Below, in pieces: positions 37,525 to 40,110 of a DNA stretch of 64,000 bases. The stretch comes from Candidatus Sericytochromatia bacterium (GTDB taxonomy: Bacteria > Cyanobacteriota > Sericytochromatia > UBA7694). The notes below the pieces were generated by a model. It saw only the letters and a list, made by a program, of their open reading frames with translations. It did not search any database and was not told the DNA's origin. The stretch covers positions 274,753 to 338,752 of the forward strand of contig JADMKE010000003.1 in the NCBI GenBank assembly GCA_018780035.1, written 5' to 3'. Position numbers and translations under genes: made by a program. Positions within the stretch are counted from its first letter, which is position 1, and every line of letters begins with the position of its first letter.

Positions 37525-37745
37525 TAGTATGCCCGGCAGGACGCCATACGCGTCCGCCAAGCGTCTTGCGTTGCCTGGATACCGGCAGCACCCGTGAGTC
37601 TTCATTCTCCGGTCATCCAGGCAAAGACGGATGACCCGGAGATTGTGTGCAGCAGGTAATTTCACCTCTCTCAGCCCTGTCAGGCTGATGCACGGGATCC
37701 CCCCGTCATCTGACCTCCGACAGGGCTAAATTTTTTTTATCCCTC
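37525..37745 (+). ncRNA. Candidate structured ncRNA or long structured 3' region ending in a terminator
   Basis: 443-nt gap with no coding potential. Consecutive hairpins: ggacgc-cata-gcgtcc; tctCCGGTCATCC-aggcaaagac-GGATGACC(C)GGaga with a bulged C; agccctgtc...[gatgcacggg-atccc-cccgtcatc]...gacagggct followed by U7. Confidence 0.25.
37672..37737 (+). terminator. Rho-independent terminator (nested hairpin + U-run)
   Basis: Stem 37672-37680 'agccctgtc' pairs with 37718-37726 'gacagggct'. T-run 37730-37737. Confidence 0.5.
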
Positions 37746-37808
37746 AAAAATTAGTTTTCTATAACGAAAAGAATGAAAAATTCATTCTTTTGGTTCTAAT
37801 TAAAACAT

Positions 37809-37893
37809 GGATATGTGGCAGAAAGGCTATTGCACTTGCCTGCTAAGCAAGGATCGTTTTTTCGATTTCTGGGTTCGAGTCCCAGCATATCCG
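37809..37893 (+). tRNA. tRNA-Ser(GCT), type II
   Basis: Acceptor GGATATG/CATATCC, anticodon loop CTGCTAA, long variable arm, T-arm CTGGG-TTCGAGT-CCCAG. Confidence 0.75.
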
Positions 37894-37898
37894 CCTGT

Positions 37899-37970
37899 TC
37901 CAAGGTAGCTCAATGGTGGAGCGTCCGCCTGTTAAGCGGAGGGATGTGGGTTCGAATCCCACCCTTGGAG
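37899..37970 (+). tRNA. tRNA-Asn(GTT)
   Basis: Acceptor TCCAAGG/CCTTGGA (U1 as in E. coli tRNA-Asn), D-arm GCTC-AATGGTG-GAGC, anticodon loop CTGTTAA, T-loop TTCGAAT. Confidence 0.75.
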
Positions 37971-37977
37971 CTAATTT

Positions 37978-38049
37978 GGGGTCTTCGTTCTAATGGTAAG
38001 ATCTCGCTTTTGCACAGCGAAGACAAGGGTTCGATTCCCTTAGACTCCA
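37978..38049 (+). tRNA. tRNA-Ala(TGC)
   Basis: Acceptor GGGGTCT/AGACTCC with the Ala-identity G3:U70 pair, anticodon stem TCGCT/AGCGA, loop TTTGCAC, T-arm AAGGG-TTCGATT-CCCTT. The D-stem is weak (two GU pairs and one mismatch). Confidence 0.55.
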
Positions 38050-38054
38050 CTCAT

Positions 38055-38206
38055 TCCGGTGTAACTCAGTTGGTAGAGTGGCCGCCTTTTAAGTGCTTCT
38101 TGTTGAGCCTCCAGGCGAAACTTAGAAAGCACTTATGCTATGCGAAGCGGAGATGCGCAGGTTGCTTCGCAACACGCACTGCGTGCTACAAACCCTGTCA
38201 CCGGAA
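38055..38206 (+). tRNA. tRNA-like gene (Lys, anticodon TTT) with a 54-nt insertion at anticodon-loop 37/38 and a 25-nt insertion at T-loop 55/56
   Basis: Acceptor TCCGGTG/CACCGGA. D-arm ACTC-AGTTGGTA-GAGT. 'GCCGC-CTTTTA' then the 54-nt hairpin-forming insert (aagtgcttct...agaaagcactt), then 'AGCGGA'. T-stem GCAGG ... TT[gcttcgcaacacgcactgcgtgcta]CAAAC ... CCTGT. The 5' half is homologous to tRNA-Arg(TCT) at 38315. Confidence 0.5.
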
Positions 38207-38210
38207 CTTT

Positions 38211-38308
38211 GGGGATATCGCTCAATGGATAGAGCCTCTGTTTACGAAGCAGATGCATGCAGGTTGCTTCGCAATACGCACAGCGTGCTCCAATTCCTGC
38301 TATCCCCG
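38211..38308 (+). tRNA. tRNA-like gene (Arg, anticodon ACG) with a 25-nt insertion at T-loop 55/56
   Basis: Acceptor GGGGATA/TATCCCC, D-arm GCTC-AATGGATA-GAGC, anticodon stem TCTGT/GCAGA, loop TTACGAA. T-arm GCAGG-TT[gcttcgcaatacgcacagcgtgctc]CAATT-CCTGC; without the insert the T-loop is a canonical TTCAATT. Confidence 0.55.
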
Positions 38309-38314
38309 CCTTTT

Positions 38315-38387
38315 TCCGGTATAGCTCAGTGGAAAGAGCATCCGCCTTCTAAGCGGACAAGCACAGGTTCGACTCCTGTTACCGGAG
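38315..38387 (+). tRNA. tRNA-Arg(TCT)
   Basis: Acceptor TCCGGTA/TACCGGA, D-arm GCTC-AGTGGAAA-GAGC, anticodon loop CTTCTAA, T-arm ACAGG-TTCGACT-CCTGT. 73 nt. Confidence 0.75.
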
Positions 38388-38391
38388 TTGT

Positions 38392-38464
38392 GGGAACAAA
38401 GCTCAAAGGAATGAGCACCTGTGTCCGAAACAGGCGGTTACAGGTTCAAATCCTGTTGTTCCCA
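38392..38464 (+). tRNA. tRNA-Arg(CCG)
   Basis: Acceptor GGGAACA/TGTTCCC, D-arm GCTC-AAAGGAAT-GAGC, anticodon stem CCTGT/ACAGG with loop GTCCGAA, T-arm ACAGG-TTCAAAT-CCTGT. 73 nt. A8 is unusual. Confidence 0.65.
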
Positions 38465-38470
38465 TCTTTT

Positions 38471-38566
38471 TCCAGTATAGCTCAATGGTAGAGCATTCGG
38501 TTGATAACCGAAAGACACAGGTTGCTTTGCAATACGCACTGCGTGCTACAACTCCTGTTGCTGGAA
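38471..38566 (+). tRNA. tRNA-like gene (Ile, anticodon GAT) with a 25-nt insertion at T-loop 55/56
   Basis: Acceptor TCCAGTA/TGCTGGA, D-arm GCTC-AATGGTA-GAGC, anticodon stem TTCGG/CCGAA with loop TTGATAA. T-arm ACAGG-TT[gctttgcaatacgcactgcgtgcta]CAACT-CCTGT. Confidence 0.55.
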
Positions 38567-38634
38567 CTGTGGTATCCCCACTCCCAGGCAACTGGGTTCT
38601 CGAAGAACAGTATCAACGAAATGAGGTAAGCAAA

Positions 38635-40110
38635 ATGAAACTGAATCAGATTCTGAAAATGGCCGAAAAATTGCGGGCGCGGCCCGATGCCACGGTCAAT
38701 CACGCAGGCGCCCTGGCGTTTAAACCCAGTTCACAGCTTGATCTGTATTTGAGAGCCTGCACCTGCCTGGTAGAAGACCGCTTTTATACCAAAGCCGATC
38801 AGCAATTGACCGAATTGCGTACTGCGATTCAAGCCTGTGAGCGCAGCTATGTGCTCAAATTGGCGAATTATACCCGCAATCAGATGCATCTGCGCACCCT
38901 GCCTATGATTCTCTTGGCTGAAGCCTCTGTAATGTTTAGTGGCGACAGCAAAGAGGCCAAAAATGATGTGCGCAGCTATGTGCCCAAAGTCGTAAAACGG
39001 GCCGATGAACCCGGTGAATTGCTGGCCTATTGGATCCGCCGCGTGGGCGAAGGCAGCAAAGCCAAATTGCCCAATGCCTTAAAAAAAGGCCTGTCGGATG
39101 CCTTGCGCCGCTTTGATGAATACCAATTGGCCAAATACAACCGCGCTGGCGAAGTCAAATTGCGCGATGTGCTGATGCTGACCCATGCCCGGCCTGATAG
39201 CCCTGAGCGCGCAGCCCTCTACAAACGGGTCTTGGAGGACAAATTGGCCACCCCAGAAACCTGGGAAGTGCTGATCTCCACCCAAGGTGCCAGTGCAGAG
39301 ACCTGGAATAAAATCGCGCCCAAAATGGGGATCATGGCTCTGCTGCGCAATTTGCGCAATTTTGAGCAGCACAAGGCTGAAATTGCTTTGGCCCATGCCA
39401 TGAAGGTCTTTCGCGATCCTGAAAAGGTGCGCGAGAGCCAATTGCTGCCTTTTCGCTGGCTGGCTGCTGAGCGCGAAGTCAGTGGCAATGCACTCAAAGA
39501 GGCACTGCGTGAGGCGATGAATCTGTCCTTGGCCAATGTGCCTGTTTGGCAGGGAAAAACCGCTGTCTTTGTGGACCTGAGTGGTTCTATGAGTGGCGCC
39601 CTGTCTGCCCGCAGCAAAGTGATGTATATCGACGTGGCAAGCCTGATGGGGGCCATGGCAACCCGTCTGTCTCAGGGAGAATACCTGGTGGGTGGCTTCG
39701 GCGAAAGCTATCAGGATATTCCTGTCGCCCGCAGCGACAGCGTTTTGAGCAATGCCAATAAAATTCGCAAAACCGACGTGGGGCACAGCACCAACGCCTG
39801 GTTGACGATTCGGGCCTTGCGCAAACGCAAACAGGTCTTTGACCGGGTATTGCTTTTCAGCGATATGCAGTGCTACAGCACCCACTGGGGAAATGAATCT
39901 CTGGTCGAGGAGTGGCAACGCTATCGCAGAGAGGTCAATCCCCAGGCCATTTTGTACTCAGTTGATCTGGCTGGCTATGGCCAAATGCAATTTCCCCAGG
40001 ATGATTCTGGGGTGGTGCAATTGGCAGGTTGGTCAGATCGGGTTCTGGATTTGGTGGCAGCTTTAGAAAGGGGGCAAAGTGTCGTGGATCTGATCGAAGC
40101 TGAGTTTTGA
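38635..40110 (+). CDS. rsr: Ro60/TROVE-domain protein with C-terminal vWA (MIDAS) domain (Rsr ortholog)
   Basis: Start at ATG 38635, preceded by 'gaggtaagcaaa'. About 490 aa. N-terminal 'TVNHAGALAFKP...LANYTRNQMHLRTLPMILLAEA'. C-terminal vWA with MIDAS 'VFVDLSGSMSG ... FSDMQ'. The upstream 150 nt of the track ORF overlap a tRNA-like gene and are not coding. Confidence 0.7.
   Translation: MKLNQILKMAEKLRARPDATVNHAGALAFKPSSQLDLYLRACTCLVEDRFYTKADQQLTELRTAIQACERSYVLKLANYTRNQMHLRTLPMILLAEASVMFSGDSKEAKNDVRSYVPKVVKRADEPGELLAYWIRRVGEGSKAKLPNALKKGLSDALRRFDEYQLAKYNRAGEVKLRDVLMLTHARPDSPERAALYKRVLEDKLATPETWEVLISTQGASAETWNKIAPKMGIMALLRNLRNFEQHKAEIALAHAMKVFRDPEKVRESQLLPFRWLAAEREVSGNALKEALREAMNLSLANVPVWQGKTAVFVDLSGSMSGALSARSKVMYIDVASLMGAMATRLSQGEYLVGGFGESYQDIPVARSDSVLSNANKIRKTDVGHSTNAWLTIRALRKRKQVFDRVLLFSDMQCYSTHWGNESLVEEWQRYRREVNPQAILYSVDLAGYGQMQFPQDDSGVVQLAGWSDRVLDLVAALERGQSVVDLIEAEF

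Follow-up and report, generated by a model that had tools for sequence, protein, structure and literature searches.

We analysed a 64,000-nucleotide (nt) stretch of DNA from Candidatus Sericytochromatia bacterium (GenBank assembly GCA_018780035.1, contig JADMKE010000003.1), hereafter the window, around rsr, the gene for the bacterial Ro60 protein. The window (about 50% GC) looks like an ordinary bacterial chromosome segment, in which a Pfam scan of the open reading frames (ORFs) recognised UvrB, two-component systems, Ser/Thr kinases and LspA. At the locus itself, four elements follow one another 5' to 3' on the plus strand: a structured leader with a small ORF, an array of eight tRNA genes, rsr, and a short structured RNA that begins just past the rsr stop codon. 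They form one co-directional unit, which is presumably co-transcribed. A preliminary description of this DNA had recognised a candidate Ro60 ribonucleoprotein (RNP) locus and raised the idea that insert-bearing tRNA-like genes upstream of rsr are Ro60 ligands of a new class. The first claim is supported by the identity of rsr and by a Y RNA stem module directly 3' of it, and the second is not. We consider it likely that the partner of rsr is the downstream Y RNA, that the tRNA-like genes are bona fide tRNA genes, and that the module in their T-loops is optional and is not the Ro60-binding element. For comparison we used Ro60 relatives from assemblies (L001, L003, L006 and L105-L110) and 80 metagenomic Ro60 loci of 26-77% identity (L025-L104).

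The rsr gene and the RNA downstream of it

The rsr gene (38635-40110, plus strand) encodes 491 amino acids, with its start codon 8 nt past a GAGG. Its product contains the TROVE HEAT-repeat ring (Pfam PF05731, E = 8.5e-21) and a C-terminal vWA_Ro60 domain (PF25045, E = 1.7e-8) with an intact MIDAS, FVDLSGSMS, whose residues D314, S316 and S318 are invariant across 25 relatives. We found 1876 homologs, and the closest solved structure is Ro60 of the Thermus phage phiLo (9KOP/9L5Y), which matches residues 20-482 with E = 1.7e-37. By domain content and homology, the product of 38635-40110 is a genuine bacterial Ro60/Rsr ortholog with predicted RNA binding, and the TROVE plus vWA/MIDAS architecture of the preliminary description is borne out. 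A metagenome scan using a single Ro60 protein gave no match, and an alignment-based scan returned mainly distant Ro60 loci.

The putative Y RNA (87 nt, 40135-40221, plus strand) begins 24 nt past the rsr stop codon. Its ends pair in a first stem, P1 (40135-40141 with 40215-40221), which is separated from a second stem, P2 (40150-40156 with 40199-40205), by a 5' loop CAGCGCAG (40142-40149) and a 3' loop CGCUUUACU (40206-40214). The apical domain of 42 nt (40157-40198) starts with UUACUUC and folds into two small hairpins, neither of which is a T or D arm, and a U-tract (40222-40226) follows the closing stem. The fold has a z-score of -4.1. This architecture follows the layout common to the Y RNAs of relatives, in which P1 (6-7 bp) is followed by CAGCGNAG, P2 (7 bp), a stretch starting with UUACUUC, the 3' strand of P2, CG..UU(U/A)CU and the 3' strand of P1. 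Directly 3' of Ro60, relatives whose Ro60 proteins are 68-80% identical have RNAs of YrlA layout (L001, L006, L025, L105, L106, L107 and L108), in which a long stem joins the two ends and leads into a T-arm, followed by an acceptor-like hairpin that is closed and by a D-arm; for two of them, L106 (32 bits over the full length) and L107 (35 bits), the Rfam YrlA model gives matches below its threshold.

The stem module is conserved as a structure. Across 13 elements of other loci, 96% of its positions are paired and 12 of 16 pairs show compensatory changes, compared with 35-49% pairing in slid controls. For a first covariance model (R1), these stem modules were excised manually and their apical loops shortened; in a search of 89 Ro60 loci, R1 returned 52 elements, many of them in loci outside the training set and all 52 on the Ro60 strand. 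For a second model (R2) we used 34 natural sequences of such elements from other Ro60 loci and none from the window. This model matched 40135-40221 over the full model length with 50 bits and E = 1.6e-10, as the single significant match on both strands of the 64 kb (128 kb in total), where the runner-up reached 13 bits. The orthologous RNAs of L109 and L003 were also recovered (E = 4e-9 and E = 5e-9), and the window contains a single occurrence of the 5' motif, compared with an expectation of 0.1. We regard 40135-40221 as the Y RNA of this locus because of the R2 match, the orthologs in L109 and L003, and the rarity of the 5' motif.

Several observations weigh against this assignment. R1 missed the element with default filters and gave E = 0.15 with the filters off, and the Rfam YrlA and Y_RNA models have no match at 40135-40221 even at E <= 10. 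The window RNA has CGCA in place of the CGAA motif, and the tRNA-like domain that defines the YrlA subtype is absent from it, although each species examined by Chen et al. (2014; PMC4201824) had at least one Y RNA with such a domain. Since it lacks this domain, we file the element (40135-40226 with its U-tract) as YrlB-like rather than YrlA. A YrlA copy was apparently lost in the lineage of the window and in L003. On balance, the 87-nt RNA directly 3' of rsr is most likely the dedicated partner of Ro60; its architecture of stem, CAGCGNAG internal loop, stem and UUACUUC recurs in Y RNAs beside the Ro60 genes of many bacteria and phages. The preliminary description had named a canonical YrlA-type Y RNA in the gap upstream of rsr or elsewhere in the genome, combined with a lack of Ro60 association of the tRNA-like RNAs, as the finding that would speak against its own proposal, and the presence of an RNA with a Ro60-binding stem directly 3' of the gene largely amounts to that.

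Two further features were seen at the 3' side of other Ro60 genes. In several relatives a conserved hairpin, GCCGGCAAGGTGCCGGC, separates the first Y RNA from the second: L001 (about 5660-5690), L006 (about 5690), L105 (about 6190), L106 (about 2150) and L025 (about 1775); it is absent from the window and may be a processing or termination signal. In the phage-like locus L004 (5690-7110, the same as L028), eight tandem Y RNAs directly follow Ro60, two of them short and six longer, the latter enclosing a tRNA-like domain that contains a T-arm, and RtcB is encoded about 4 kb further 3'.

The tRNA array and the inserts in its genes

The array (37809-38567) packs eight tRNA genes into 759 nt on one strand, with spacers of 2-7 nt. 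Five are normal tRNAs according to both ARAGORN and Rfam: Ser-GCU (37809-37895), Asn-GUU (37899-37971), Ala-UGC (37978-38050), Arg-UCU (38314-38388) and Arg-CCG (38391-38466). The other three contain inserts. Gene A (38055-38207) is Lys-UUU-like and has inserts in both the T-loop and the anticodon loop; with the T-loop insert excised in silico, ARAGORN calls it as a tRNA with an intron. Gene B (38211-38308) is an Arg-ACG tRNA, which the Rfam tRNA model (RF00005, threshold 29) matches with 44.8 bits and 30 extra nucleotides in the T-loop. Gene C (38471-38567) is Ile-GAU-like; it is matched in part by Rfam (38474-38526, 33 bits) and is called as tRNA-Ile after excision. The T-arms of B and C score 59.4 and 59.6 bits with R3, a covariance model of the T-arm with its insert. 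Gene C ends 67 nt before the rsr start, so that the insert-bearing genes are indeed close upstream, although not at the 70 nt given in the preliminary description.

Apart from their T-loops of 31-35 nt in place of the usual 7 nt, genes A, B and C have complete cloverleaves with D and T elements and an anticodon loop. They follow the normal tRNA order, as the preliminary description had stated, and not the permuted order of YrlA (T-arm, closed acceptor-like stem-loop, D-arm), and their acceptor stem is open; their anticodons (UUU, ACG and GAU) are ordinary, and the GNCGAAN0-1G stem that replaces the anticodon arm in YrlA is absent. The Rfam YrlA model (RF02553, gathering threshold 69 bits) reaches 21.8, 20.5 and 15 bits at best in the array. 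Each of these matches spans one T-arm and the D-arm of the next gene, a known artefact of YrlA searches in tandem tRNAs (PMC4201824), and we rejected the presence of a YrlA within the array. The Rfam search for Y RNA and YrlA that the preliminary description had suggested thus returned only such artefacts in the array and nothing in the leader.

Excision between the first TT of the loop and its last five bases turns every insert-bearing gene, in the window and in relatives, into a tRNA recognised by ARAGORN, with Ser, Lys, Asn, Trp, Ala, Met, Arg and Gly tRNAs among the carriers in relatives. In the anticodon stem of tRNA-Trp, L006 (with insert) and L001 (without) differ by two compensatory pairs, which suggests that carriers remain constrained as tRNAs. 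We propose that the tRNA-like genes are bona fide tRNA genes of the array that are interrupted by a structured module, a point that belongs to the explanation we consider likely as a whole.

The T-loop inserts of A (38164-38188), B (38266-38290) and C (38524-38548) are near-identical and 25 nt long. These three copies, against none expected, are the only ones in the 64 kb, and their confinement to T-loops led us to reject a general dispersed repeat. Across all carriers the insert measures 24-26 nt and lies exactly between U55 and C56. A first hairpin pairs U54-U55-G-C with G-C-A-A around a U-N-Y triloop; a 3-nt linker with C as its last base leads to a second hairpin of 3-5 bp with variable sequence, which is followed by an invariant U, one further base, and C56-R57-A58. 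We model the module as two 4-bp mini-hairpins, the first of which would recruit U54 and U55 of the tRNA. In an alignment of 16 copies, pairing extends to 94.7% of the cells, and compensatory changes occur in 8 of 13 pairs (three of the four pairs of hairpin 2, one of hairpin 1 and four of the T-stem). The structure of the insert is under selection. C56-R57-A58 is kept in 20 of 22 carriers, together with the GG of the D-loop; the remaining two, one of them the YrlA of L105, end in a degenerate CGCGT without A58. Group I or II signatures were absent from the Rfam scan of the tRNA array, and inspection revealed neither target-site duplications nor terminal inverted repeats around the insert.

Comparison of closely related strains shows that the insert is facultative and is gained or lost precisely. 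The sister strain L109/L110, whose Ro60 is 97% identical to that of the window, shares with it the leader, all eight tRNAs, rsr and the Y RNA, but has not one T-loop insert. In a global alignment with L109 (94% identical), genes A and B differ by exact 25-nt indels at 38164-38188 and 38266-38290, and the flanks of the insert in B are identical to the insert-free ortholog at 73 of 73 positions. Conversely, tRNA-Asn of L009 carries an insert at window position 37952/37953 (GGTT[GCTTCGCAACACGCACTGCGTGCTA]CGAAT, where the window has GGTTCGAAT), and this insert is identical to that of gene A. The rest of the RNA locus is near-identical between the window and L009, except where the small ORF begins, in a short stretch that varies. 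In tRNA-Ala-UGC, inserts with a common idiosyncratic extra U are found in both L001 and L006 (80% identity between their Ro60 proteins) and are absent from the window and L109; copies can therefore last long while keeping their structure, yet also turn over between strains.

Gene A contains a second type of insert, of about 54 nt, in its anticodon loop (38093-38146), with the pattern AAGUGCUU...GAGCC..GGCGA..AAGCACUU and a mini-hairpin. Group I introns are larger than this. L109, which has no T-loop inserts, keeps it (about 3065-3118), and in L001 (2440-2610) the same type is found in a different, Asn-GUU-like tRNA.

To define the distribution of the T-loop insert, we searched all sources with R3 (E < 0.01). 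The 23 copies found are confined to the window, L001, L006, L009, L011 and L105, with none in the other 87 sources searched, including the 80 metagenomic Ro60 loci as well as L003 and L106-L109. The copies come from five Sericytochromatia genomes, and all carriers belong to one lineage, Candidatus Sericytochromatia/Blackallbacteria. L001 and L006 have six and nine insert-bearing members, respectively, in arrays of 2-2.8 kb, and one copy lies in the T-arm of the L105 YrlA (6059-6100, inside the Y RNA at 6012-6176). We also scanned 185,579 species genomes for the motif without regard to Ro60. Of the 15 places returned, three have a tRNA context: L009, which is Candidatus Blackallbacteria mt_P12, and L011 and L022, which are contigs of the Candidatus Sericytochromatia metagenome-assembled genome GCA_913773825.1. 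The other 12 places are close in number to a chance estimate of about 9. L011 (2971-5393) holds a second array of Phe, Pro, Gly, Gly and Val tRNAs, two of which carry the T-loop insert, followed by an XRE-type helix-turn-helix gene and a divergent TROVE paralog without MIDAS (32% identity, E = 3e-41). Separately, an ORF 5' of this array is rich in the F/P/G/V codons read by its tRNAs (15 of 49, against a background of 8%; p = 5e-6).

The association between tRNA genes and Ro60 is wider than that of the insert. All relatives with enough upstream sequence have tRNA genes directly 5' of Ro60 on the same strand. The preliminary description had suggested looking in relatives for insert-bearing tRNA-like genes beside rsr: the link between Ro60 and the array recurs in seven related loci, and insert-bearing tRNAs stand beside the rsr of L001 and L006 but not that of L109. 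L003 retains only the leader, one plain tRNA-Ser-GCU, rsr and the Y RNA. Of the 80 metagenomic loci, 31 have tRNA genes within about 4 kb of Ro60; all 172 of these genes are on the Ro60 strand, and some arrays (L092, L053, L055 and L098) comprise 10-26 of them. Assemblies of relatives often break 340-440 nt 5' of Ro60, inside the array, as at the left ends of L106, L107 and L108. The array spacers of L001 (1840-3990), L006 (1900-3990) and L105 contain many short palindromic repeats, for example GGCTGATGGC.../GCCATCAGCC, which are absent from the compact array of the window.

Readings of the insert and of the downstream hairpin

The module would behave like a small intron-like or mobile element, a reading that rests on its precise gain and loss, the near-identity of copies among the tRNAs of one genome, and its presence in a YrlA T-arm. 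What is new here is a facultative, structured and position-specific T-loop module; the Ro60/Y RNA part is a further member of a known system. The only interruptions of bacterial tRNA genes known to us are self-splicing group I or II introns, and we know of no tRNA intron pathway of this kind in bacteria. A literature search, itself incomplete, found no description of such T-loop insertions in bacterial tRNAs. We rejected both group I and group II introns, given inserts of 25 and about 54 nt compared with a core of at least about 200 nt, and no Rfam intron match in the array. A parallel is provided by the non-canonical tRNA introns of archaea (transposing in Thermoproteales), which are short and structured, occupy fixed positions including the T-loop, and vary between relatives. 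The window insert resembles them in being short, structured, fixed in position, alike between tRNAs and variable between strains, but differs in its bacterial host, in the lack of a bulge-helix-bulge (BHB) motif and in that no splicing endonuclease is known or was seen. The SDR elements, very small mobile repeats of cyanobacteria (Elhai et al. 2008, cited in PMC5861425), are reportedly hairpin-forming insertions that measure about 21-27 nt and vary in their presence at orthologous sites. Unlike these, the window-type insert is not dispersed, and all its copies occupy one T-loop position in TROVE-linked arrays.

One alternative takes the inserts as mini-introns that are cut from pre-tRNA and pre-YrlA; ligation of the exons, for instance by an enzyme of RtcB type, would then restore the 7-nt T-loop, and the inserts would be the bacterial equivalent of non-canonical archaeal introns. 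Gain and loss at a single phosphodiester, the canonical tRNA that excision yields in every case, and the retention of C56-R57-A58 and the D-loop GG described above are all consistent with it, as are the persistence of the orthologous Ala insert between L001 and L006 and the occurrence of the second insert type at the canonical anticodon-loop position of two different tRNAs. RtcB is also part of Ro60 operons in other organisms (PMC7790460) and is encoded near Ro60 in phage-like L004. Against it, a BHB motif (two 3-nt bulges, each with a splice site, on either side of a 4-bp helix) cannot be drawn, since the 5' junction (U55|G) falls inside hairpin 1 while the 3' junction abuts C56, and it has no covariation support; this candidate was rejected on inspection. 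No group I or II signal was found with Rfam, no endonuclease or ligase gene was found among the window ORFs scanned against Pfam, and the two carriers with the CGCGT remainder, including the L105 YrlA, have lost A58. We regard the mini-intron explanation as unlikely. We are equally doubtful of a broader idea, in which the T-loop modules (about 24-26 nt) and anticodon-loop modules (about 54 nt) form a mobile class of mini-introns inserted and removed at the RNA level, with Ro60 and its Y RNA chaperoning, licensing or clearing the precursors. As to the fate of the insert in the RNA, our guess, at not quite even chances, is that it is retained as a three-way junction with a U-N-C-R-A pseudo T-loop; it might instead inactivate dispensable tRNA copies, which we think rather improbable, or be spliced, which appears less probable again.

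The preliminary description had put forward another alternative, namely that the insert-bearing tRNA-like RNAs are a new, non-permuted class of Y RNA with the 25-nt T-loop hairpins as the Ro60 site. Some observations fit this proposal. All 23 insert copies lie either in arrays 5' of a TROVE gene and on its strand or in a Y RNA, the genome-wide motif scan gave no tRNA-context copy outside these arrays, the same insert is present in the T-arm of the L105 YrlA, and its invariant unpaired bases suggest recognition by a protein. This exclusive linkage counts against our own preference for tRNA genes with an insert that is not the Ro60-binding element, and because all copies are TROVE-linked and one lies in a YrlA, the insert may have some functional coupling to Ro60. 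However, a Y RNA with a Ro60-binding stem, recognised by R2, adjoins rsr itself; L109 has rsr and a Y RNA without T-loop inserts, and L003 has rsr, the leader and a Y RNA with a single plain tRNA-Ser. The insert does not resemble the CAGCGNAG/UUCUC motifs of the Ro60-binding stem, and the carriers keep varied anticodons and full cloverleaves. The YrlA matches in the array, at no more than 21.8 bits against the 69 of the model, are explained by tandem tRNAs. A new class of Y RNA is thus very unlikely: the position of the Y RNA 3' of rsr and the insert-free L109 do not support the tRNA-like RNAs as Ro60 ligands, and the optional nature of the insert, together with its dissimilarity to the stem motifs, does not support the hairpins as the binding element. 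Least probable by our estimate is that the hairpin after rsr is solely an intrinsic terminator, with Ro60 having no dedicated Y RNA or one encoded elsewhere: the hairpin does end in a U-tract, begins 24 nt past the stop codon, has no tRNA-like domain and matches no Rfam model, but it matches in full length, conserved unpaired motifs included, a model built from elements that lie both 5' and 3' of Ro60 and in tandem runs of up to eight, as terminators would not, and in relatives the same stem encloses the YrlA tRNA-like domain.

The leader, the genomic setting and related systems

Upstream of the array lies a structured and conserved element (37505-37740; fold z-score -5.6 compared with shuffled sequences). 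The preliminary description had noted a highly structured non-coding region of 220 nt here; the structure was confirmed, but the 5' part of the region overlaps a conserved small ORF (37505-37597, plus strand) of 30 codons and a stop, which encodes MTTLKRNSMPGRTPYASAKRLALPGYRQHP and is preceded by AAGG 8 nt 5'. The ORF is open in all six sequences compared, with a variable N-terminal part and a conserved C-terminal LPLxG(Y/F)RQ, and its conserved 3' part coincides with conserved RNA helices. The core of the leader (37565-37738, plus strand) comprises helices a and b, a terminal hairpin and a T-run. Helix a (37571-37580 with 37615-37624) shows compensatory changes at columns 10/60, 11/59 and 15/55 of the RNAalifold consensus; helix b (37607-37618 with 37629-37641) is mutually exclusive with helix a and has, by inspection, one compensated pair in L003. 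Next comes a long hairpin (37672-37727), with a T-run (37731-37738) that is found in the window and L003 and not in L001, L105 or L006. The leader is conserved in the window, L009, L109, L001, L105, L006 and L003, always 5' of tRNA-Ser-GCU.

These features suggest that the leader may act as a translation-coupled or protein-responsive switch before the array, with the terminator-like hairpin as an attenuator. Given the T-run 3' of this hairpin, the leader could also be a transcript of its own, separate from the array, rsr and the Y RNA. Candidate mechanisms were tried and rejected. A stretch UGGAUACCGG is slightly T-box-like, but Rfam gave no T-box match at E <= 10. The leader codons do not mirror the anticodons of the array (10 of 29 in the window against a background of 0.28, p = 0.28; p = 0.24 for L001 and p = 0.12 for L006), with a significant match only at the separate L011 array (p = 5e-6). 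R2 returned a weak Y-RNA-like mini-module (37579-37615, E = 0.57) that recurs at the orthologous site in relatives. As a Y-like mini-module, the ACCGG/CCGGU helix of the leader scores E = 0.15-4 and is broken without compensation in L003, and for this reason a Ro60 autoregulation site in the leader is a weak idea, to be taken as a lead only.

Further upstream, a promoter-like element (37401-37430, plus strand) comprises TTGCTT (37401-37406), an 18-nt spacer and TATGAT (37425-37430), with a C-rich tract 5' of the boxes. By eye, a similar CCCC-TTG(C/A)NN ... TA(T/A)GAT arrangement is present in L001, L003, L105 and L109; a consensus scan for promoters and terminators flagged neither the promoter-like boxes nor the long hairpins of the locus. 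A gene for a 562-amino-acid protein (35677-37365) without a Pfam match lies just 5' of the RNA locus and is far more diverged between the window and L009 than the adjoining RNA locus. At 53371-54789 (plus strand), 13 kb from the locus, there is a gene with TRAM and tRNA (uracil-5-) methyltransferase family matches (RlmD/TrmA-like). RtcB, RtcA and PNPase were not found among the roughly 45 larger window ORFs scanned against Pfam.

The locus can be compared with three known systems. In the Salmonella rsr-yrlBA-rtcBA operon, which responds to damaged tRNAs (PMC7790460), the Y RNAs YrlA and YrlB adjoin rsr (Chen et al. 2014, PMC4201824; Rfam RF02553). Like bacterial YrlA and YrlB, the window Y RNA directly adjoins the Ro60 gene on the same strand, has paired ends and contains an internal loop with a CG(A/N)A-type motif, and close relatives have the permuted T-arm, closed acceptor and D-arm domain of YrlA at the same site. 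It differs in lacking a tRNA-like domain, in having the motif CAGCGCAG rather than GNCGAAN0-1G and in falling below every Rfam threshold; moreover, rsr sits at the end of a tRNA array, and rtcBA is absent from the window.

The second is phiLo Ro60 (9KOP, 9L5Y), which assembles with the PNPase of its host into a RYPER-like complex (PMC12135203). The window protein has the same TROVE ring and vWA domain, and the phage protein binds the stem-bulge-stem Y-like RNAs encoded next to it (Yrl1/Yrl2). The phage Yrls, however, lie 5' of the gene, the phage protein is only a distant relative in sequence, and the context of the window is chromosomal rather than phage.

The third is given by the long tRNA arrays of cyanobacteria (L-arrays, such as the Anabaena trn operon), which are accessory, induced by translational stress and co-regulated with rtcB (PMC8421152, PMC10272220). 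The window array is likewise a tight co-directional run of tandem tRNA genes with short spacers and without encoded CCA, and it varies between relatives; the genomic and regulatory tie of L-arrays to RNA repair through rtcB is a further likeness. It differs in its smaller size (eight genes), in its fusion to rsr and a Y RNA, in being preceded not by TrcR operator repeats but by a conserved structured leader that contains a small ORF, and in the T-loop and anticodon-loop inserts of some members. The window locus would fit the picture of a tRNA-stress module that L-arrays and the Salmonella rsr operon present.

With this RNA, the Ro60 of an uncultured sister lineage of the cyanobacteria gains a concrete candidate Y RNA. 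Ro60 and Y RNA genes often lie within co-directional tRNA arrays, and this arrangement, seen for 172 of 172 tRNA genes in the survey of 80 loci, supports a role of Ro60 in tRNA stress or repair. The T-loop module, for its part, implies either an unfamiliar mechanism of insertion or splicing or a tolerated redesign of the tRNA elbow.

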